Assembly: GCA_026770705.1 (NCBI GenBank)
Contig: JANJGN010000016.1
Coordinates: forward strand, 87,110,001-87,174,000
Source: Isurus oxyrinchus
Lineage: Eukaryota
Direction: 5' to 3'
Length of the DNA: 64,000 nt
Within the stretch, counting starts at the first letter, position 1; each line of letters begins with the position of its first letter. Of this stretch, positions 36,723 to 64,000 are shown one piece after another. The notes beneath the pieces are model-generated. The model did not search any database. It was not told the origin of the DNA and saw nothing but the letters and a program-made list of their open reading frames with translations. The translations under genes and the position numbers were made by a program.

Positions 36723-36823
36723 TTTATTACCTTTTACACATTGACATTTACAGAAAAAAGACTTGAATAAACAGCCCAGCCAGAGGGAGCTGGAGAAATT
36801 CACAGGGAGAATGGAGGTTTATT
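36723..36823 (-). terminator. Candidate polyadenylation signals of the light-chain mRNA (AATAAA at 36818-36823 and 36723-36728)
   Basis: First canonical AATAAA hexamers I found downstream of the C stop codon on the minus strand (tttatt on +). Confidence 0.55.
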
Positions 36824-37020: not shown

Positions 37021-37370
37021 AACTGTCCCATCAAACACTCCCAGGACAGGTGCTGCAGGGGGCTAGATACAGAGTAAAGGTCCCTCTACACTGTCCCCAT
37101 CAAACACTCCCAGGGCAGGTACAGCACAGTGTTAGATACAGAGTAAAGCTCCCTCTACACTGTCCCCATCAAACACTCCCAGGGCAGGTACAGCACAGGG
37201 TTAGATACAGAGTAAAGCTCCCTCTACACTGTCCCCATCAAACACTCCCAGGGCAGGTACAACACGGGGTTAGATACAGAGAAAAGCTCCCTCTACACTG
37301 TCCCCATTAAACACTCCCAGGACAGGTACAGCACAGGGTTAGATACAGAGTAAAGATCCCTGTACACTCC
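37021..37370. repeat. 69-bp tandem repeat, ~5 copies, in the presumed 3' UTR
   Basis: GTTAGATACAGAGTAAAGCTCCCTCTACACTGTCCCCATCAAACACTCCCAGGGCAGGTACAGCACAGG recurs at 37131 and 37200. Confidence 0.92.
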
Positions 37371-37529: not shown

Positions 37530-37858
37530 CTACGCACATTCTGATCTCCTGATGCTCTTCCTGAGGGGAGAGGAAAGACTCTCGTGGGTGACGACACAGG
37601 AGAAGCTGGCGTTGGACTCCCAGCCGGAGCCAGAGAGGGTCAGCAGGCTGCTGACGCTGTAGGTGCTGTCCGAAGCTCGCAGGTAGTTGCTGGTCTGAAC
37701 CCCGTCCGAAATGGCTGCACCGTCCTTCTTCCACTCCACCTTCACCTCATCGGGATAGAAGTGATTGGCAAGGCACACCAGGGTGGCAGTGCCCTTGGTC
37801 TTGACCTCCTCTGGGGAGGGGGGCAGCAGGGTCAGTGTGGGTGGTGACTTCTCTCTGC
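37530..37858 (-). CDS. IGKC: Ig light chain kappa (NS4-type) constant exon
   Basis: Acceptor CTTCTCTTCTCTTTCAG, phase 1. Translation (S)REKSPPTLTLLPPSPEEVKTKGTATLVCLANHFYPDEVKVEWKKDGAAISDGVQTSNYLRASDSTYSVSSLLTLSGSGWESNASFSCVVTHESLSSPLRKSIRRSECA*. C1-set Cys/Trp/Cys and penultimate inter-chain Cys present. Confidence 0.97.
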
Positions 37859-43801: not shown

Positions 43802-43836
43802 TCAGTCTGAGTTTGGTTCCTTTACCGAACGTAACC
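43802..43836 (-). CDS. IGKJ: Ig light chain kappa J segment
   Basis: G GTT ACG TTC GGT AAA GGA ACC AAA CTC AGA CTG A|GTAAGT = VTFGKGTKLRL(S). FGxG motif, consensus donor, phase 1 matches the C exon. Confidence 0.96.
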
Positions 43837-43875
43837 CACACTGAGAGATTCCAGTGCAGGGGCTGTACAAAAACC
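43837..43875 (+). promoter_or_regulatory. 23-bp-spacer recombination signal sequence of J
   Basis: CACACTG (43837-43843, one mismatch) + 23 bp + perfect ACAAAAACC (43867-43875). Confidence 0.95.
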
Positions 43876-43889
43876 TCAGCTCTCTGCTT

Positions 43890-44045
43890 CACTCAGTCAC
43901 TCTCACCCTCTCTCTGTCTCTCACTCACACTCACCTTTAACTCACTCTCACCCTCTCTCTGTCTCTCACACACACTCACCTTTAACTCACTCTCACCCTT
44001 TCTCTGTCTCTCACTCACACTCACCTTTAACTCTCACTCTTTTCC
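43890..44045. repeat. ~45-bp pyrimidine-rich tandem repeat, ~3 copies, next to the J RSS
   Basis: CTCACTCTCACCCTCTCTCTGTCTCTCACTCACACTCACCTTTAA repeated. Confidence 0.85.
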
Positions 44046-44160
44046 TCTCTCTTCCTCTCAATGTCTTTTTGTTGTTCCAAGAGTTGAGAATCCCGATTTT
44101 ATTTGATAAATTTTTCAGCTGCTCTTCATGTGTGGACATGGAGGGTAAGAGGTAAAGTGA

Positions 44161-46849
44161 CCGTTATTATATATTATATATAACTGTGGGATGTGTCAGT
44201 ACAGGAGGTGGGACTGTGTGTCCATTATTATATATTCTATATAACATTGGGATGTCTCAGTACAGGAGGTGGGACTGTGTGTCCATTATTATATATTCTA
44301 TATAACGTTGGGATGTCTCAGTACAGGAGGTGGGACTGTGTGTCCATTATTATATATTCTATATAACTGTGGGATGTGTCAGTACAGGTGGTGGGACTGT
44401 GTGTCAATTATTATATATTCTATATAACTGTGGGATGTGTCAGTATAGGAAGTGGTGGTGTGTGTCCATTATTATATATTCTATATAACTGTGGGATGTG
44501 TCAGTACAGGAGGTGGGACTTTGTGTCCATTATTATATATTCTATATAACTGTGGGATGTGTCAGTACAGGTGGTGGGACTGTGTGTCCATTATTATATA
44601 TTCTATATAACTGTGGGATGTGTCAGTATAGGAAGTGGTGGTGTGTGTCCATTATTCTATATTCTATATAACTGTGGGATGTGTCAGTACAGGAGGTGGT
44701 GCTGTGTGTCCATTATTATATATTCTATATAACTGTGGGATGTGTCAGTACATGAGGTGTGACTGTGTGTCCATTATTATATATCCTATATAACTATTGG
44801 ATGTGTCAGTACAGGAGGTGGGACTGTGTGTCCATTATTATATGTTCTATATAACTGTGGGATGTGTCAGTACAGGAGGTGGTGGTGGTGTGTCCATTAT
44901 TATATATTCTATATAACTGTGGGATGTGTCAGTACAGGAGGTGGTGGTGGTGTGTCCATTATTATATATTCTATATAACTGTGGGATGTGTCAGTACAGG
45001 AGGTGGGACTGTGTGTCCATTATTATATATTCTATATAACTGTGGGATGTGTCAGTACAGGAGGTGGGACTGTGTGTCCATTATTATATATTATATACAA
45101 CTGTGGGATGTGTCAGTACAGGAGGTGGGACTGTGTGTCCATTATTATATATTCTATATAACTGTGGGATGTGTCAGTATAGGAAGTGGTGGTGTGTGTC
45201 CATTATTATATATTCTATATAACTGTGGGATGTGTCAGTACAGGAGGTGGGACTTTGTGTCCATTATTATATATTCTATATAACTGTGGGATGTGTCAGT
45301 ACAGGAGGTGGGACTGTGTGTCCATTATTATATATTCTATATAACGTTGGGATGTCTCAGTACAGGAGGTGGGACTGTGTGTCCATTATTATATATTCTA
45401 TATAACTGTGGGATGTGTCAGTACAGGTGGTGGGACTGTGTGTCAATTATTATATATTCTATATAACTGTGGGATGTGTCAGTATAGGAAGTGGTGGTGT
45501 GTGTCCATTATTATATATTCTATATAACTGTGGGATGTGTCAGTACAGGAGGTGGGACTTTGTGTCCATTATTATATATTCTATATAACTGTGGGATGTG
45601 TCAGTACAGGTGGTGGGACTGTGTGTCCATTATTATATATTCTATATAACTGTGGGATGTGTCAGTATAGGAAGTGGTGGTGTGTGTCCATTATTCTATA
45701 TTCTATATAACTGTGGGATGTGTCAGTACAGGAGGTGGTGCTGTGTGTCCATTATTATATATTCTATATAACTGTGGGATGTGTCAGTACATGAGGTGTG
45801 ACTGTGTGTCCATTATTATATATCCTATATAACTATTGGATGTGTCAGTACAGGAGGTGGGACTGTGTGTCCATTATTATATGTTCTATATAACTGTGGG
45901 ATGTGTCAGTACAGGAGGTGGTGGTGGTGTGTCCATTATTATATATTCTATATAACTGTGGGATGTGTCAGTACAGGAGGTGGTGGTGGTGTGTCCATTA
46001 TTATATATTCTATATAACTGTGGGATGTGTCAGTACAGGAGGTGGGACTGTGTGTCCATTATTATATATTCTATATAACTGTGGGATGTGTCAGTACAGG
46101 AGGTGGGACTGTGTGTCCATTATTATATATTATATACAACTGTGGGATGTGTCAGTACAGGAGGTGGGACTGTGTGTCCATTATTATATATTCTATATAA
46201 CTGTGGGATGTGTCAGTACAGGAGGTGGGTCTGTGTATCCATTATTATATATTCTATATAACTGTGGGATGTGTCAGTACAGGAGGTGGGACTGTGTGTC
46301 CATTATTATATATTCTATATAACTGTGGGATGTGTCAGTACAGGAGGTGGGACTGTGTGTCCATTATTATATATTATATATAACTGTGGGATGTGTCAGT
46401 ACAGGAGGTGGGACTGTGTGTCCATTATTATATATTCTATATAACTGTGGGATGTGTCAGTACAGGAGGTGGGTCTGTGTATCCATTATTATATATTCTA
46501 TATAACTGTGGGATGTGTCAGTACAGGAGGTGGGACTGTGTGTCCATTATTATATATTCTATATAACTGTGGGATGTGTCAGTACAGGAGATGGTGCTGT
46601 GTGTCCATTATTATATATTCTATATAACTGTGGGATGTGTCAGTACAGGAGATGGTGCTGTGTGTCCATTATTATATATTATATATAACTGTGGGATGTG
46701 TTAGTACAGGAGGTGGGATTGTGTGTCCATTATTATATATTCTATATAACTGTGGGATGTGTCAGTACAGGAGGTGGGACTGTGTGTCCATTATTATATA
46801 TTCTATATAACTGTGGGATGTGTCAGTACAGGAGGTGGTGCTGTGTGTA
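44161..46849. repeat. 61-bp minisatellite, ~44 copies, filling the V-J spacer
   Basis: Unit CCATTATTATATATTCTATATAACTGTGGGATGTGTCAGTACAGGAGGTGGGACTGTGTGT (starts 44222, 44283...). Internal 1039-bp duplication (ORFs 44864/45903). Confidence 0.97.
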
Positions 46850-46853
46850 TTGA

Positions 46854-46881
46854 GGTTTTTGTCAGGCTCTGTATCACTGTG
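46854..46881 (-). promoter_or_regulatory. 12-bp-spacer recombination signal sequence of V
   Basis: Perfect CACAGTG + ATACAGAGCCTG + ACAAAAACC. V12/J23 is the kappa-type arrangement. Confidence 0.98.
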
Positions 46882-47176
46882 TAGGTGTAGCTGCTATACT
46901 GCTGACAGTAATATTCAGCGACATCCTCATTCTGTACATTGCTGATTGTCAGGGTGAATTGAGTGCCAGATCCACTGCCGGTGAATCGCTCGGATGTTCC
47001 TGTGAATCGGTTTGTTGCCCTATAGATCAGGAGAGTCGGTTTCTGTCCTTCTCGCTGCTGGTACCAACTCACATAGCTGCTAACAGACTGACTGGCTGTA
47101 CAGGTGATGGTGGCAGTCTGGCCCAGGCTCACTGACACCAGGGGAGACTGTTTCATGGTGATGTCCCCACTGATAC
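46882..47176 (-). CDS. IGKV: Ig light chain kappa (NS4-type) V exon, germline unrearranged
   Basis: Acceptor TTTCTCTATTACCCCTCAG. Translation (G)[97 protein letters not shown]. Both Cys, WYQQ, LLIY and GSGSG intact. Confidence 0.98.
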
Positions 47177-47362
47177 CTGAGGGGTAATAGAGAAACAGAG
47201 TGAAGTAAGAACAGTCACACAAAGAGCCTGTAAAATGAGATATTGTTAGAGACAGTGACCGTTCCTCTGCTTTCAGCATTTTCCCTTCAATCACAAGTCA
47301 GTCGAATTGGCTGGAAATGGAGAGCAGGAAAATATTCACGGTGGAAGGAGAGAGATTTGTAC

Positions 47363-47411
47363 CTGCGATGCAGAATGCCAGAGGCCAGATCAGCTGGATG
47401 GCTGAAATCAT
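47363..47411 (-). CDS. IGKV: Leader (signal peptide) exon of the V gene
   Basis: ACCATG start; MISAIQLIWPLAFCIA-G|GT, 49 bp, phase 1 matching the V exon; 186-bp intron. Confidence 0.93.
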
Positions 47412-47471
47412 GGTGTCTGCTCCTGTCCCTGTGCCTGGTCACTGATAAACTCTCCCTTCACTGGGCTCAGC

Positions 47472-47525
47472 TTTATACAGCTGCAGCCTGTCAGAGTCTC
47501 ACTGGCTGTTCCTCAGTATGTAAAT
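47472..47525 (-). promoter_or_regulatory. V promoter: TATAAA (47472-47477) and octamer variant ATTTACAT (47518-47525)
   Basis: Order and spacing (octamer ~107 bp and TATA ~60 bp upstream of ATG) fit Ig light-chain promoters; octamer is 7/8 to ATTTGCAT. Confidence 0.8.
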
Positions 47526-47679
47526 GGTATCACCCAGAGAGAACCACGTCAGCACCTCTCACTTCCTCTCCATCTTTCTCTCTCTATTTGTCTCTGTTTC
47601 ACAGTCTCCCCCCCTCTCTCTCTCTCTGTCTTTGTACGTTATTCTCTTTCTCTCTCTACCTCTCTCTCTCCCTCTCTCA

Positions 47680-50600
47680 GTACCTGTCCGTCACTCTCGT
47701 CTCTCTCTCTACCTCTCTCTATCTCTGTCCGTCACTCTCTGTCTCTCTCTCCCTATCTCTGTCTGTCTCTGTCCGTCACTCTCTGTCTCTCTCTCCCTAC
47801 CTCTGTCTGTCTCTGTCCGTCACTCTCTGTCTCTCTCTCCCTACCTCTGTCTGTCTCTGTCCGTCACTCTCTGTCTCTCTCTCCCTACCTCTGTCTGTCT
47901 CTGTCCGTCACTCTCTGTCTCTCACTCCCTACCTCTGCCTGTCTCTGTCCATCACTCTCTGTCTCTCACTCCGTACCTCTGTCTGTCTCTGTCCGTCACT
48001 CTCTGTCTCTCACTCCCTACCTCTGTCTGGCTCTGTCCGTCACTCTCTGTCTCTCTCTCCCTACCTCTGTCTGTCTCTGTCCGTCACTCTCTGTCTCTCT
48101 CTCCCTACCTCTGTCTGTCTCTGTCCGTCACTCTCTGTCTCTCTCTCCCTACCTCTGTCTGTCTCTGTCCGTCACTCTCTGTCTCTCTCCCCCTCTCTCT
48201 GTCTGTCTCTGTCCGTCACTCTCTGTCTCTCTCTCCCTACCTCTGTCTGTCTCTGTCCGTCACTCTCTGTCTCTCACTCCCTACCTCTGTCTGTCTCTGT
48301 CCGTCACTCTCGTCTCTCTCTCTACCTCTCTCTATCTCTGTCCGTCACTCTCTGTCTCTCTCTCCCTATCTCTGTCTGTCTCTGTCCGTCACTCTCTGTC
48401 TCTCTCTCCCTACCTCTGTCTGTCTCTGTCCGTCACTCTCTGTCTCTCACTCCCTACCTCTGCCTGTCTCTGTCCATCACTCTCTGTCTCTCACTCCGTA
48501 CCTCTGTCTGTCTCTGTCCGTCACTCTCTGTCTCTCACTCCCTACCTCTGTCTGTCTCTGTCCGTCACTCTCTGTCTCTCTCTCCCTACCTCTGTCTGTC
48601 TCTGTCCGTCACTCTCTGTCTCTCTCTCCCTACCTCTATCTGTCTCTGTCCATCACTCTCTGTCTCTCTCTCCCTACCTCTGTCTGTCTCTGTCCGTCAC
48701 TCTCTGTCTCTCTCTCCCTACCTCTGTCTGTCTCTGTCCGTCACTCTCTGTCTCTCTCTCCCTACCTCTGTCTGTCTCTGTCCGTCACTCTCTGTCTCTC
48801 TCTCCCTACCTCTGTCTGTCTCGGTCTGTCACTCTCTGTCTCTCTCTCCCTACCTCTGTCTGTCTCTGTCCGTCACTCTCTGTCTCTCTCCCTACCTCTG
48901 TCTGTCTCTGTCCGTCACTCTCTGTCTCTCACTCCATACCTCTGTCTGTCTCTGTCCGTCACGCTCTGTCTCTCTCCCTACCTCTGTCTGTCTCTGTCCG
49001 TCACTCTCTGTCTCTCTCTCCCTACCTCTATCTGTCTCTGTCCGTCACTCTCTGTCTCTCTTTCCCTACCTCTGTCTGTCTCTGTCCGTCACTCTCTGTC
49101 TCTCTCCCTACCTCTGTCTGTCTCTGTCCGTCACTCTCTGTCTCTCACTCCCTACCTCTGTCTGTCTCTGTCCGTCACTCTCTGTCTCTCACTCCCTACC
49201 TCTGTCTGTCTCTGTCCGTCACTCTCTGTCTCTCTCTCCCTACCTCTGTCTGTCTCTGTCCGTCACTCTCTGTCTCTCTCTCCCTACCTCTGTCTGTCTC
49301 TGTCCGTCACTCTCTGTCTCTCTCCCTACCTCTGTCTGTCTCTGTCCGTCACTCTCTGTCTCTCACTCCCTACCTCTGTCTGTCTCTGTCCGTCACTCTC
49401 TGTCTCTCACTCCCTACCTCTGTCTGTCTCTGTCCGTCACTCTCTGTCTCTCACTCCCTACCTCTGTCTGTCTCTGTCCGTCACTCTCTGTCTCTCACTC
49501 CCTACCTCTGTCTGTCTCTGTCCGTCACTCTCTGTCTCTCACTCCCTACCTCTGTCTGTCTCTGTCCGTCACTCTCTGTCTCTCTCTCCCTACCTCTGTC
49601 TGTCTCTGTCCGTCACTCTCTGTCTCTCTCTCCCTACCTCTGTCTGTCTCTGTCCGTCACTCTCTGTCTCTCTCCCTACCTCTGTCTGTCTCTGTCCGTC
49701 ACTCTCTGTCTCTCACTCCCTACCTCTGTCTGTCTCTGTCCGTCACTCTCTGTCTCTCACTCCCTACCTCTGTCTGTCTCTGTCCGTCACTCTCTGTCTC
49801 TCACTCCCTACCTCTGTCTGTCTCTGTCCGTCACTCTCTGTCTCTCTCTCCCTACCTCTGTCTGTCTCTGTCCGTCACTCTCTGTCTCTCTCTCCCTACC
49901 TCTGTCTGTCTCTGTCCGTCACTCTCTGTCTCTCTCCCTACCTCCGTCTGTCTCTGTCCGTCACTCTCTGTCTCTCACTCCCTACCTCTGTCTGTCTCTG
50001 TCCGTCACTCTCTGTCTCTCACTCCCTACCTCTGTCTGTCTCTGTCCGTCACTCTCTGTCTCTCTCTCCCTATCTCTGTCTGTCTCTGTCCGTCACTCTC
50101 TGTCTCTCTCTCCCTACCTCTGTCTGTCTCTGTCCGTCACTCTCTGTCTCTCTCTCCCTACCTCTGTCTGTCTCTGTCCGTCACTCTCTGTCTCTCTCTC
50201 CCTACCTCTGTCTGTCTCTGTCCGTCACTCTCTGTCTCTCTCTCCCTACCTCTGTCTGTCTCTGTCCGTCACTCTCTGTCTCTCTCTCCCTACCTCTGTC
50301 TGTCTCTGTCCGTCACTCTCTGTCTCTCTCCCCCTCTCTCTGTCTGTCTCTGTCCGTCACTCTCTGTCTCTCTCTCTCCCTACCTCTGTCTGTCTCTGTC
50401 CGTCACTCTCTGTCTCTCTCTCCCTACCTCTGTCTGTCTCTGTCCGTCACTCTCTGTCTCTCTCTCCCTACCTCTGTCTGTCTCTGTCCGTCACTCTCTG
50501 TCTCTCTCCCCCTCTCTCTGTCTGTCTCTGTCCGTCACTCTCTGTCTCTCTCTCCCTACCTCTGTCTGTCTCTGTCCGTCACTCTCTGTCTCTCACTCCC

Positions 50601-51100
50601 TACCTCTGTCTGTCTCTGTCCGTCACTCTCTGTCTCTCTCTCCCTACCTCTGTCTGTCTCTGTCTGTCACTCTCTGTCTCTCTCTCCCTACCTCTGTCTG
50701 TCTCTGTCCGTCACTCTCTGTCTCTCTCTCCCTACCTCTGTCTGTCTCTGTCCGTCACTCTCTGTCTCTCTCTCCCTACCTCTGTCTGTCTCTGTCTGTC
50801 ACTCTCTGTCTCTCTCTCCCTACCTCTGTCTGTCTCTGTCCGTCACTCTCTGTCCCTCTCTCCCTACCTCTGTCTGTCTCTGTCCGTCACTCTCTGTCTC
50901 TCACTCCCTACCTCTGTCTGTCTCTGTCCGTCACTCTCTGTCTCTCTCTCCCTACCTCTGTCTGTCTCTGTCCGTCACTCTCTGTCTCTCTCTCCCTACC
51001 TCTGTCTGTCTCTGTCCGTCACTCTCTGTCTCTCTCTCCCTACCTCTGTCTGTCTCTGTCCGTCACTCTCTGTCTCTCTCTCCCTACCTCTGTCTGTCTT
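47680..51100. repeat. 44-bp polypyrimidine minisatellite, ~77 copies
   Basis: Unit CTCTGTCTGTCTCTGTCCGTCACTCTCTGTCTCTCTCTCCCTAC with 42/46-bp variants. It has no stops on +, which produces the spurious 1399 and 1304 aa ORFs. Confidence 0.96.
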
Positions 51101-51198: not shown

Positions 51199-51363
51199 NN
51201 NNNNNNNNNNNNNNNNNNNNNNNNNNNNNNNNNNNNNNNNNNNNNNNNNNNNNNNNNNNNNNNNNNNNNNNNNNNNNNNNNNNNNNNNNNNNNNNNNNNN
51301 NNNNNNNNNNNNNNNNNNNNNNNNNNNNNNNNNNNNNNNNNNNNNNNNNNNNNNNNNNNNNNN
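51199..51363. other. Assembly gap (165 N)
   Basis: Run of N. Confidence 1.
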
Positions 51364-59514: not shown

Positions 59515-62500
59515 TTTACTTCACAATCCAGTCTATGTACTCTGGTAAATCACACTTCACAATCCAGTCTGTGTACTCAGCTACATCACACTTCACAATT
59601 CAGTCTGTGTACTCAGGTACATCACACTTCACAATCCAGTCTGTGTACTCAGGTACATCACACTTCACAATCCAGTCTGTGTACTCAGGTACATCACACA
59701 TCACATTCCAATCTGTGTACTCAGGTACATCACACTTCACAATCCAGTCTGTGTACTCAGGTACATCACACTTCACAATCCAGTCTGTGAACTCAGGTAC
59801 ATCACACTTCACAATCCAGTCTGTGAACTCAGGTACATCACACTTCACAATCCAGTCTGTGTACTCAGGTACAACACACTTCAGAATCCAGTCTGTGTAC
59901 TCAGGTACATCACACTTCACAATCCAGGCAGTGTAGTCACGTATAACACACTTCATAATCCAGTCAGTGTACTCAGGTAAATCACACTTCACAATCCAGT
60001 CTGTGGATTCATATATACCACACTTCACAATCCAGTCTGTGTACTCAGGCACGTCAAACTTCACAATCCAGTCTGTGTACTCAGGCACGTCACACTTCAC
60101 AATCCAGTCTGTGTACTGATGTACACCACACTTCACATTCCGGTCTGTGTATTCAGGTACATCAAACTTCACAATCCTGTCTGTGAACGCAGGTAAATCA
60201 CACTTCACAATCCACTCTGTGTATTCAGGTACATTACACTTCAGAATCAAGTCTGTGTACTCAGGTACACGACACTTCACAATCCAGTCTGTGTACTCAG
60301 GTACATCACACTTCACAATCCTGTCTGTGCACTCATGTACATCACACTTCACATTCAAGTCTGTGTACTCAGGTACATCGGATTTCACCATCCAGTCTCT
60401 GTACTCAGGTACATCACACTTCACAATTCAGTCTGTGTACTCAGGTACATCACATTTCACAATAAAGGCCGTGTACTCAGGTACATCACACTTCACAATC
60501 CTGTCTGCGTACTGTGGTACATCACACTTCACAATCCTGTCTGCGAACTGAGGTACATCACACTTCACATTCCAGTCTGTGTACTCAGGTACATCACATT
60601 TCACAATCCAGTCTGTGTACTCAGGTACCTCACACTTCACAATCAAGTCTGTGTACTGAGGTACACCACACATCAGAATCCAGTCTGTGTACTCAGGAGC
60701 ATCAAACTTCACAACCCAGTCTGTGTACTCAGGTACATCACACTTCACAATCCAGTCTGTGTACTCAGGTACATCACACTTCACAATCCAGTCTGTGTAC
60801 TCAAGTACATCACACTTCACAGTCCAGTCTGTGTACTCAGGTACATCACATTTCACAATCCAGTGTGTGTACTCAGGTACATCACATTTCATAATCCAGT
60901 CTCTGTACTCAGGTACATCACATTTCACAATCCAGTCTGAGTACTCAGGCACGTCACACTTCACAATCCAGTCTGTGTACTAATGTACACCACACTTCAC
61001 ATTCCTGTCTGTGTATTCAGGTAAATCACACTTCACAATCCTGTCTGTGAACTCAGGTACATCAAACTTCACAATCCAGTCTGTGTATTCAGGTACATTA
61101 CACTTCAGAATCAAGTCTGTGTACTCAGGTACACGACACTTCAAAATCCAGTCTGTTTACTCAGGTACATCACACTTCACAATGCTGTCTGTGCAGTCAT
61201 GTACATCACACTTCACATTCAAGTCTGTGTACTCAGGTGCATCGCATTTCACCATCTAGTCTCTGTGCTCAGGTACATCACACTTCACAATCCAGTCTGT
61301 GTACTCAGGTACATCACATTTCATAATCCAGTCTGCGTACTCAGGTACATCACACTTCACAATCCAGTCTGTGTACTCAGGTACATCACACTTCACAATC
61401 CAGTCTGTGTACTCAGGTACATCACACTTCACAATTCAGTCTGTGTACTCAGGTACATCACACTTCACAATACAGTCTGTGTAGTCAGGTATATCACACA
61501 TCACAATCCAGTCTGTGTACTCAGGTACATCACACTTCACAATTCAGTCTGTGTACTCAGGTACATCACACTTCACAATCCTGTCTGTGTACTCAGGTAC
61601 ATCACACTTCACAATCCAGTCTGTGTACTCAGGTACATCACACTTCACAATCCAGTCTGTGTACTCAGGTACATCACATTTCATAATCCAGTCTGTACTC
61701 AGGTACATCACACTTCACAATCCAGTCTGTGTACTCAGGTACATCACACTTCACAATCCAGTCTGTGTACTCAGGCACATCACACTTCACAGTCCAGTTT
61801 GTGTACTCAGGTACATCACATTTCACAATCCAGTGTGTGTACTCAGGTACATCACATTTCACAATCCAGTCTCTGTACTCAGGTACATCACATTTCACAA
61901 TCCAGTCTGAGTACTCAGGCACTTCACACTTCACAATCCAGTCTGTGTACTAATGTACACCACACTTCACATTCCTGTCTGTGTATTCAGGTACATCACA
62001 CTTCACAATCCTGTCTGTGAACTCAGGTACATCAAACTTCACAATCCAGTCTGTGTATTCAGGTACATTACACTTCAGAATCAAGTCTGTGTACTCAGGT
62101 ACACGACACTTCACAATCCAGTCTGTTTAATCAGGTACATCACACTTCGCAATGCTGTCTGTGCAGTCATGTACATCACACTTCACATTCAAGTCTGTGT
62201 ACTCAGGTGCATCGCATTTCACCAACTAGTCTCTGTGCTCAGGTACATCACACTTCGAATTTCAGTCTGTGTACTCAGGTACATCACATTTCACAATCCT
62301 GTCTGTGTACTGAGGTACATCACACTTCACAATCCAGTCTGCGTACTGAGGTACATCACACCTCACATTCCAGTCTGTGTACTCAGGTCCATCACACTTC
62401 ACAATCAAGTCTGTGTACTGAGGTACACCACACTTCACAATTCAGTCTGTGTACTCAGGTACATCACACTTCACAATACAGTCTGTGTACTCAGGTACAT

Positions 62501-64000
62501 CACACTTCACAATCCAGTCTGTGTACTCAGGTACATCACACTTCACAATCCAGTCTGTGTACTCAGGTACATCACATTTCATAATCCAGTCTGTACTCAG
62601 GTACATCACACTTCACAATCCAGTCTGTGTACTCAGGTAAATCACACTTCACAATCCAGTCTGTGGATTCATATATACCACACTTCACAATCCAGTCTGT
62701 GTACTCAGGCACGTCAAACTTCACAATCCAGTCTGTGTACTCAGGCACGTCACACTTCACAATCCAGTCTGTGTACTGATGTACACCACACTTCACATTC
62801 CGGTCTGTGTATTCAGGTACATCACACTTCACAATCCTGTCTGTGAACGCAGGTAAATCACACTTCACAATCCAATCTGTGTATTCAGGTACATTACACT
62901 TCAGAATCAAGTCTGTGTACTCAGGTACACGACACTTCACAATCCAGTCTGTGTACTCAGGTACATCACACTTCACAATCCTGTTTGTGCACTCATGTAC
63001 ATCACACTTCACATTCAAGTCTGTGTACTCAGGTACATCGGATTTCACCATCCAGTCTCTGTACTCAGGTACATCACACTTCACAATTCAGTCTGTGTAC
63101 TCAGGTACATCACATTTCACAATAAAGGCCGTGTACTCAGGTACATCACACTTCACAATCCTGTCTGTGTACTGTGGTACATCACACTTCACAATCCTGT
63201 CTGCGTACTGAGGTACATCACACTTCACATTCCAGTCTGTGTACTCAGGTACATCACATTTCACAATCCAGTCTGTGTACTCAGGTACCTCACACTTCAC
63301 AATCAAGTCTGTGTACTGAGGTACACCACACATCAGAATCCAGTCTGTGTACTCAGGAGCATCAAACTTCACAACCCAGTCTGTGTACTCAGGTACATCA
63401 CACTTCACAATCCAGTCTGTGTACTCAGGTACATCACACTTCACAATCCAGTCTGTGTACTCAAGTACATCACACTTCACAGTCCAGTCTGTGTACTCAG
63501 GTACATCACATTTCACAATCCAGTGTGTGTACTCAGGTACATCACATTTCATAATCCAGTCTCTGTACTCAGGTACATCACATTTCACAATCCAGTCTGA
63601 GTACTCAGGCACGTCACACTTCACAGTCCAGTCTGTGTACTAATGTACACCACACTTCACATTCCTGTCTGTGTATTCAGGTAAATCACACTTCACAATC
63701 CTGTCTGTGAACTCAGGTACATCAAACTTCACAATCCAGTCTGTGTATTCAGGTACATTACACTTCAGAATCAAGTCTGTGTACTCAGGTACACGACACT
63801 TCAAAATCCAGTCTGTTTACTCAGGAACATCACATTTCACAATGCTGTCTGTGCAGTCATGTACATCACACTTCAGATTCAAGTCTGTGTACTCAGGTGC
63901 ATCGCATTTCACCATCTAGTCTCTGTGCTCAGGTACATCACACTTCACAATCCAGTCTGTGTACTCAGGTACATCACATTTCATAATCCAGTCTGCGTAC
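59515..64000. repeat. 36-bp satellite with a 2660-bp higher-order duplication, continues past right edge
   Basis: Unit TTCACAATCCAGTCTGTGTACTCAGGTACATCACAC. ORF pairs 60147/62807, 60335/62995 and 61011/63671 are all offset by 2660. Confidence 0.96.

Follow-up and report, generated by a model that had tools for sequence, protein, structure and literature searches.

A 61-bp tandem array in the V-J spacer of a mako shark Ig kappa cluster is probably a neutral minisatellite

The locus described here raises the question of why the spacer between the V and J segments of an immunoglobulin (Ig) light-chain cluster should be occupied by a long tandem array whose units resemble the start of a recombination signal sequence (RSS). 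The window, a 64,000-nucleotide stretch of the mako (Isurus oxyrinchus) genome, was the subject of an original prediction that the array had been amplified from the V RSS and might offer decoy or loading sites for RAG, with neutral slippage as the simpler null. This null fits best. We consider it most probable, at odds of about three in four, that the array is a neutral minisatellite that grew from an old spacer segment with an RSS-like relic and that it experiences at most trace cryptic cutting.

The minus strand of the window carries a complete Ig light-chain cluster composed of leader, V, J and one C exon, with all frames open, splice sites present and the V 12-RSS opposed to the J 23-RSS (Table 1). 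It is an intact shark Ig kappa (NS4/type III) cluster, an assignment made because the C exon is 97% identical to the kappa chain of Cetorhinus maximus and 82% identical to a nurse shark NS4-type chain (37 hits among 389 candidates). The gap between V and J measures 3045 bp, compared with 502-524 bp in nurse shark NS4 genes, whose leader intron is 186 bp (PMC2193156). Both the gene context and the unusual spacer length of the original prediction are therefore borne out. With a single unit, the mako gap would be 418 bp and near the nurse shark length. As separate observations, a 69-bp repeat occurs five times in the 3' UTR of the C exon (37022-37368), with AATAAA signals beyond it at 36823 and 36728, and a protein of 89 residues that is labelled Salmonella Typhimurium and derives from a 299-bp contig (P0048) is 96% identical to the V exon. 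This last entry likely represents shark DNA contaminating a public bacterial assembly.

Table 1. Features of the kappa cluster and of the array in its V-J spacer (positions in the window).
Feature	Position	Strand	Remark
Octamer-like promoter motif ATTTACAT	47518..47525	-	1 mismatch to Ig octamer
Leader exon	47363..47411	-	Splice 47173/47360 found in RNA-like run
Leader intron, 186 bp	47177..47362	-	Length equal to nurse shark NS4 genes
V kappa exon, open frame	46882..47176	-	Pfam V-set
V 12-RSS, heptamer 7/7, nonamer 9/9	46854..46881	-	
Tandem array, 44 units of 61 bp (four of 62)	44160..46848	-	Repeat finder and anchored unit cut
First heptamer-like block CACAGTTATATAGA, 12/14 vs RSS start	46802..46815	-	Overlaps 7-bp inverted repeat 46810-46794
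923-bp exact internal duplication, first copy, 17-unit period of 1039 bp	45296..46218	-	
923-bp exact internal duplication, second copy	44257..45179	-	
Remaining spacer, 284 bp, holds 45-bp GA-rich repeat x3.6	43876..44159	-	
J 23-RSS, heptamer CACACTG 6/7, nonamer 9/9, opposite V signal	43837..43875	+	
J segment VTFGKGTKLRL and GT donor	43802..43836	-	
C kappa exon, open to stop	37530..37858	-	Pfam C1-set, 97% Cetorhinus maximus kappa

Part of the stretch is carried by 20 of 24 public sequencing runs from two coded organisms (A and B), and four runs were compared over positions 46756-47570, an interval that contains V plus about one unit. The motif at 47518-47525, which we take to be a variant of the Ig octamer, shows no difference from the window in the majority contig of organism A; a search of the minus strand between 36000 and 48000 yielded no canonical octamer. 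The FR1 region is one codon short, and both this trait and the octamer variant are common to the majority contigs, while the E in place of D before YYC in V is present in protein P0025 as well. The candidate explanation that a damaged V or promoter lies behind decay was rejected because the frames are open and the FR1 and octamer variants are not private. Among the runs listed as carrying the stretch, none is recorded as RNA; one from organism A (X15), taken as RNA by guess only, shows splicing of the leader, and in it V is joined to J at 46882, the normal V end. This joined J is paralogous, and the paralog may have an array of another length. Contigs of the same run carry paralog alleles and none of the window's private V alleles, and such contigs drop rare variants. 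They also extend across the RSS and the unit, a weak hint of germline transcripts over these elements.

Tandem Repeats Finder places the array at 44157-46848 with a period of 61, 44.1 copies and 93% matches, and an anchored cut yields 44 units, in agreement with the roughly 44 copies originally claimed. These units run head to tail within the 10-100 bp range of minisatellites, and 42 of the 44 have a mean identity of 96% to their consensus. Each is composed of a 33-bp flank, a 14-bp heptamer-like block and a 14-bp AT-rich block. The AT-rich block pairs as a 7-bp inverted repeat with the bases that precede it, which may point to a fold-back origin. Because the natural unit follows this order, with the array starting at 46848 on a flank (past the nonamer and TCAAT, 6 bp from the nonamer) and ending at 44160 after an AT-rich block, the V RSS lies outside the array.

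The RSS and unit sequences quoted in the original prediction are present in the window as stated, and the distance from the RSS heptamer to the next heptamer is indeed 66 bp (46881 to 46815). The claim that every unit reads CACAGTT holds for 39 of the 44, whereas the other five have lost the CAC. Similarly, a second heptamer-like CACAGTC was said to occur in most units and is found in 24 of 44, but the 23-bp distance between the two heptamers is not a feature of an RSS. The CAC triplets of the array number 234 on the minus strand and zero on the plus strand, so all of them are oriented towards the J signal, as had been noted. Three further interpretations of the array were tried and rejected: that the unit consists of two 30-bp halves (P 0.49 beyond CACAGT), that the tail after the array is a decayed flank (P 0.09-0.39), and that the array is a switch-like region, as it is without AGCT. 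Rfam returned no hits over positions 34000-60000 of the window. Contigs from metagenomes, prokaryotes and viruses gave 0 matches to a 22-base piece of the unit, and no metagenome locus was recovered with the V protein; these collections are poor in shark DNA, which makes both results uninformative.

The array has grown in layers. Variant units are grouped in blocks, and 923 bp are repeated without a single difference at a lag of 1039 bp (17 units), a duplication that goes beyond the original prediction; shorter exact repeats occur at lags of 244 and 305 bp (4 and 5 units). It is unlikely that the assembly has written the 17-unit block twice and that the true array has about 27 units, an error that would be compatible with the main reading. 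The exact identity of 923 bp among units that differ by ~4% from their consensus, together with a scaffold gap nearby (51199-51363), gives this alternative some weight. However, recent real duplications look alike, and the lags of 244 and 305 bp represent the same process on a smaller scale.

The surroundings of the array are rich in repeats, with nine tandem arrays accounting for 73% of the window. A G-rich 28-bp satellite of about 1235 diverged copies (7-34548) fills more than half of the window and lies ~3 kb past the end of the C exon. A GA-rich 44-bp array (47660-51099, 78 copies, 96% matches) starts ~135 bp upstream of the octamer-like motif and is followed by a gap of 165 N bases, and a 36-bp array of at least 124 copies (59518-64000) continues past the window end. 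Growth of the 61-bp array by slippage is supported by this 73% share of tandem arrays and by the internal repeats at lags of 4, 5 and 17 units.

We turn to the claim that the array was amplified from the V RSS. The first 14 bases of the unit match the RSS heptamer and spacer start at 12 of 14 positions, and a match of this quality in any rotation arises in 21 of 100,000 shuffled units (P ~2e-4, for a comparison picked post hoc). This part of the original prediction thus exceeds chance, and the 14-bp block is likely related to the start of the RSS. The A-rich nonamer ghost is a different matter, since 5/9 matches at 11 bp are expected by chance (P 0.33 by shuffles; 0.20 on local composition). 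The middle 19 bp of the RSS do not align with the corresponding 14 bp of the unit (P 0.95), and the likeness of the array tail to the flank is not significant (P 0.09-0.39). Moreover, the flank that RSS and units have in common is simply the DNA downstream of the RSS, and therefore gives no evidence that the RSS was duplicated. With the array proper at 46848-44160 leaving the RSS out, the sequence comparisons speak against the V RSS as a first unit in register.

The age of the monomer can be judged from other sharks. Among 42 shark-type proteins chosen from 162, 14 are gene models whose reading frame continues past the RSS and enters the 33-bp flank, and they come from basking, horn, cat, bamboo, epaulette and zebra sharks; the splice points of these predicted models are not visible. 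Because of this read-through, the 'extra' residues of kappa models such as P0005, P0006, P0008, P0010, P0012, P0018, P0030 and P0043, which run through the RSS into the spacer, can be regarded as annotation artefacts that preserve spacer sequence. Six models scored in one frame differ by a minimum of 1-5 bases in 66, three bamboo shark models differ by 3-6 bases in 63-78, and three others fit worse, with 13-21 changes. Nine models reach the second-heptamer site. There, CACA(GT) fits bamboo shark P0043 (HSYI), catshark P0010 and horn shark P0008, so that codons compatible with CACAGT are retained in three of nine models across orders; P0053 fits CAC only, and in the other five CAC is not encodable in register. 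In catshark P0018, the next 24 bases can be matched with 5 changes after a 2-base shift, a fit equalled at none of 13,979 background sites.

These comparisons suggest that the 61-bp monomer is an old part of the kappa spacer that occupies the same place in other shark orders. The spacer of catshark P0018 would hold a single copy, provided that no splice lies there, because its sequence past the block is unlike a second flank (19 changes in 33; background median 19). Other shark orders diverged at depths similar to that separating nurse and horn sharks. The latter split has been dated to 180 million years (PMC2193156). The expansion into an array appears, on this inference, to be recent and lineage-specific. 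An old monomer that expanded in the mako lineage is indicated because the array starts past the nonamer, the ghost is at chance level, and flank and block are found in other sharks. What was amplified would thus be the spacer monomer, and not the RSS itself, contrary to the original prediction.

Joints at which the sequence 'goes back 61' occur in contigs of three of the four compared runs, all three DNA-like, and since these come from both organisms, the unit is tandem in A as well as B. Loose contig ends in three runs preserve a unit-to-tail junction identical to that of the window, and a 501-bp contig of organism B begins in the intron, covers V, RSS and flank, and reaches into the first heptamer. 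No contig among the four runs spans the array. Ratios of summed depth between unit and V are ~6 in X12 (organism A, consensus loop), 3-93 in X1 and, depending on overlap inflation, 37-1150 in X7 (organism B), with the reservation that contig depth is not copy number.

These same depths bear on whether the 61-mer belongs to a genome-wide satellite, unrelated to the locus, that came to lie in the spacer by chance, an alternative that we judge very unlikely. The high ratio in X7, a hint only, would fit it, as would the diverged variants in that run and a loose end; specifically, one X7 contig joins the unit at 46758 to DNA absent from the window, and several units there are diverged. Organism B may thus have the unit at further loci or in a different kappa subfamily. 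In opposition, other shark orders carry the monomer at the orthologous position of their kappa spacers, the consensus loop of X12 is only ~6 times as deep as the V contig (also a hint only), and beyond the array the window has just five 12-mer matches to the unit, at two sites.

Could RAG make use of the units? As a 12-RSS, the unit offers a heptamer that starts with CAC in 39 of 44 copies, but its nonamer matches are 3/9 at 12 and 13 bp, and the 5/9 at 11 bp has the chance level given above. A 23-bp spacer gives a better reading that the original prediction did not contain, in which the consensus has a nonamer-like motif with 6/9 matches and a broken A run; the chance probability of such a match is 0.04 at exactly 23 bp and 0.11 at 22-24 bp, uncorrected for the several spacers tried. 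Nonamer positions 5-7, which carry particular weight, are AAT with the 12-bp spacer and AGT with the 23-bp spacer. Under a published strong-site filter ('CAC plus 9 of 13'; PMC11153149), 25 array sites pass with a 23-bp spacer, none with 12 bp and one with 11 bp. Because of the 12/23 rule, the partner of a unit of the 23 type would be the V signal rather than J, with inversion as the outcome. Across 42 of the 44 units, variant alleles number 5 in the seven heptamer sites and 26 in the other 54 sites, and the heptamer therefore seems to be without sign of constraint in the array, as it does across paralogs.

Published assays allow a rough estimate of activity. In the SARP-seq supplement, the heptamer plus two bases of the true signal, CACAGTGAT, combined with a consensus nonamer accounts for 1.14% of joints, compared with 0.067% for CACAGTTAT, which is 17-fold lower, and 0.012% for CACAGTCCC (PMC9723617). 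With the LMO2 nonamer, CACAGTTAT yields 21 and 9 reads against 704 and 410 x15, which amounts to ~0.2% of the consensus signal, provided that the pMAX column represents the 1:15 spike-in. With all 39 copies added up, the units would reach 6-8% of the true signal, a rough ceiling that comes from non-shark core RAG, plasmids and HEK293T cells and that assumes additivity. Against a weak signal stands the identification of CACAGTTAT, in the same source, as the heptamer plus two of mouse J alpha 38, where cutting takes place in vivo. The IRS1 heptamer of the mouse kappa intron also recombines, with both 12 and 23 signals, although no nonamer is obvious there, an example of physiological recombination at a lone heptamer (PMC2118853). 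RAG joins convergent CACs at a very low level (PMC11153149). We predict that the array look-alikes draw at most trace RAG cutting.

A neutral array might nonetheless act as an incidental sink that takes up a few per cent of events, either by deletion, when RAG at the J 23-RSS joins J to one of the array heptamers, or by inversion, when a unit in its 23-spaced reading becomes the partner of the V 12-RSS. Cells in which this happened would lose the cluster. We regard this as quite unlikely. It would draw on the convergence of all 234 CACs on the J signal, the very low-level joining of such CACs by RAG (PMC11153149), the summed estimate, the 25 sites that pass the 23-spacer filter, the RAG cutting of cryptic 23-signals in mouse gamma-satellite (PMC2193808) and the behaviour of IRS1 (PMC2118853). 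Yet the estimate carries the limits just stated, and the LMO2 nonamer has an A run that the unit lacks; the perfect V signal competes in cis; and any loss would be buffered if there are about 50 kappa clusters, as in nurse shark (PMC2193156).

The function originally proposed goes further, to a selected decoy or RAG-loading array whose copy number is a heritable dial for the rearrangement of each kappa cluster. Its location exactly between the two signals, its orientation, the kinship of its block with the RSS and its tandem state in two organisms speak for it. However, the heptamer is conserved neither within the array nor across paralogs, the nonamer ghost is at chance, and any C-rich strand copied in tandem would give the uniform orientation as a matter of course. 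Other sharks manage their kappa clusters with short spacers, and the repeat-rich neighbourhood accounts for the expansion. With heptamers that are weak in published assays and zero strong 12-spacer sites, there is no positive evidence for a decoy or tuning role, which we consider the least probable of the readings. Only slightly less improbable, and still highly unlikely, is the related proposal of a minisatellite rheostat, in which an RSS-derived heptamer array of variable length soaks up RAG in mackerel-shark kappa clusters, by J deletion or V inversion, such that repeat number sets a cluster's share of the repertoire.

For the neutral minisatellite, the following course of events is plausible. 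Before the shark orders split, an old short duplication of the first 14 bp of the RSS would have left a copy of them 66 bp further downstream; this copy either never had a nonamer or lost one long ago. The unit of flank plus block would then have been amplified in the mako's lineage, with growth likely by slippage and unequal crossing-over in the absence of selection. V-J joining would delete the whole array along with the signal ends, and owing to this excision the array would be absent from the finished gene. Some findings pull against this neutral account, namely the real 12/14 RSS likeness, the CACAGT-compatible codons in three of nine models across orders, the use of CACAGTTAT in mouse J alpha, a summed activity of 39 copies that is not zero, the 25 sites that pass with a 23-bp spacer, and the tandem state of the unit in two organisms, because of which such arrays can be said to persist.

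As a neutral minisatellite, the array is of minor importance. It demonstrates that a six-fold growth of the V-J spacer can leave a shark gene visibly undamaged, its length offers a marker for kappa clusters, and it brings to light a small, ancient relic resembling an RSS in the kappa spacers of sharks. The locus also provides a natural experiment, in which clusters with near-identical signals that differ in their number of convergent heptamers could reveal an effect of spacer length or cryptic sites on cluster usage, a matter that bears on how sharks choose among dozens of light-chain clusters. If copy number did set usage, V(D)J recombination would be subject to a novel type of control.

Among known systems, the closest relatives are the split V-J-C clusters of shark Ig kappa (NS4/type III), which share with the mako locus one L-V, J and C per cluster, the 186-bp leader intron, the 12/23 signals and the spacer flank (PMC2193156; PMC5192425), and whose proteins are 82-97% identical to the mako C region. 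Unlike the nurse shark spacer of about 500 bp, the mako gap is extended to 3045 bp by its 44-unit array. The available portions of PMC2193156 and PMC5192425 make no mention of a repeat in a shark kappa spacer, and our literature search, which took in few of the subscription-only papers on light chains in nurse and horn shark, found no report of an RSS-derived array or of any tandem array within the V-J spacer of a shark. The convergent CAC off-targets of RAG scanning likewise lie between V and J and converge on the J signal; these differ in being very low-level joins in long mouse loci, without function, whereas the shark spacer is 3 kb (PMC11153149). Mouse IRS1, with RS/Kde, is alike in presenting a heptamer without an obvious nonamer in a kappa locus that it could inactivate, but it is single, resides in the J-C intron and has proven recombination, whereas the mako heptamer is non-consensus, multiplied, located between V and J and unconserved (PMC2118853). 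Mouse gamma-satellite consists of tandem units with CAC heptamers best read as 23-spacer signals, and its cryptic signals were proposed by the authors to be a harmless sink for breaks (PMC2193808). It is a pericentromeric 234-bp repeat for which cutting has been demonstrated, while the mako array lies within an antigen-receptor spacer, where cutting is predicted to be at most trace. By analogy, the gamma-satellite would be the nearest precedent for a decoy array. Finally, minisatellites, or VNTRs, as a general class consist of short units repeated head to tail, and the mako array is alike in its 61-bp unit, its layered variant blocks and its repeat-rich surroundings. It departs from the usual minisatellite in that its unit holds an RSS-related heptamer block and sits in DNA that is excised on rearrangement.
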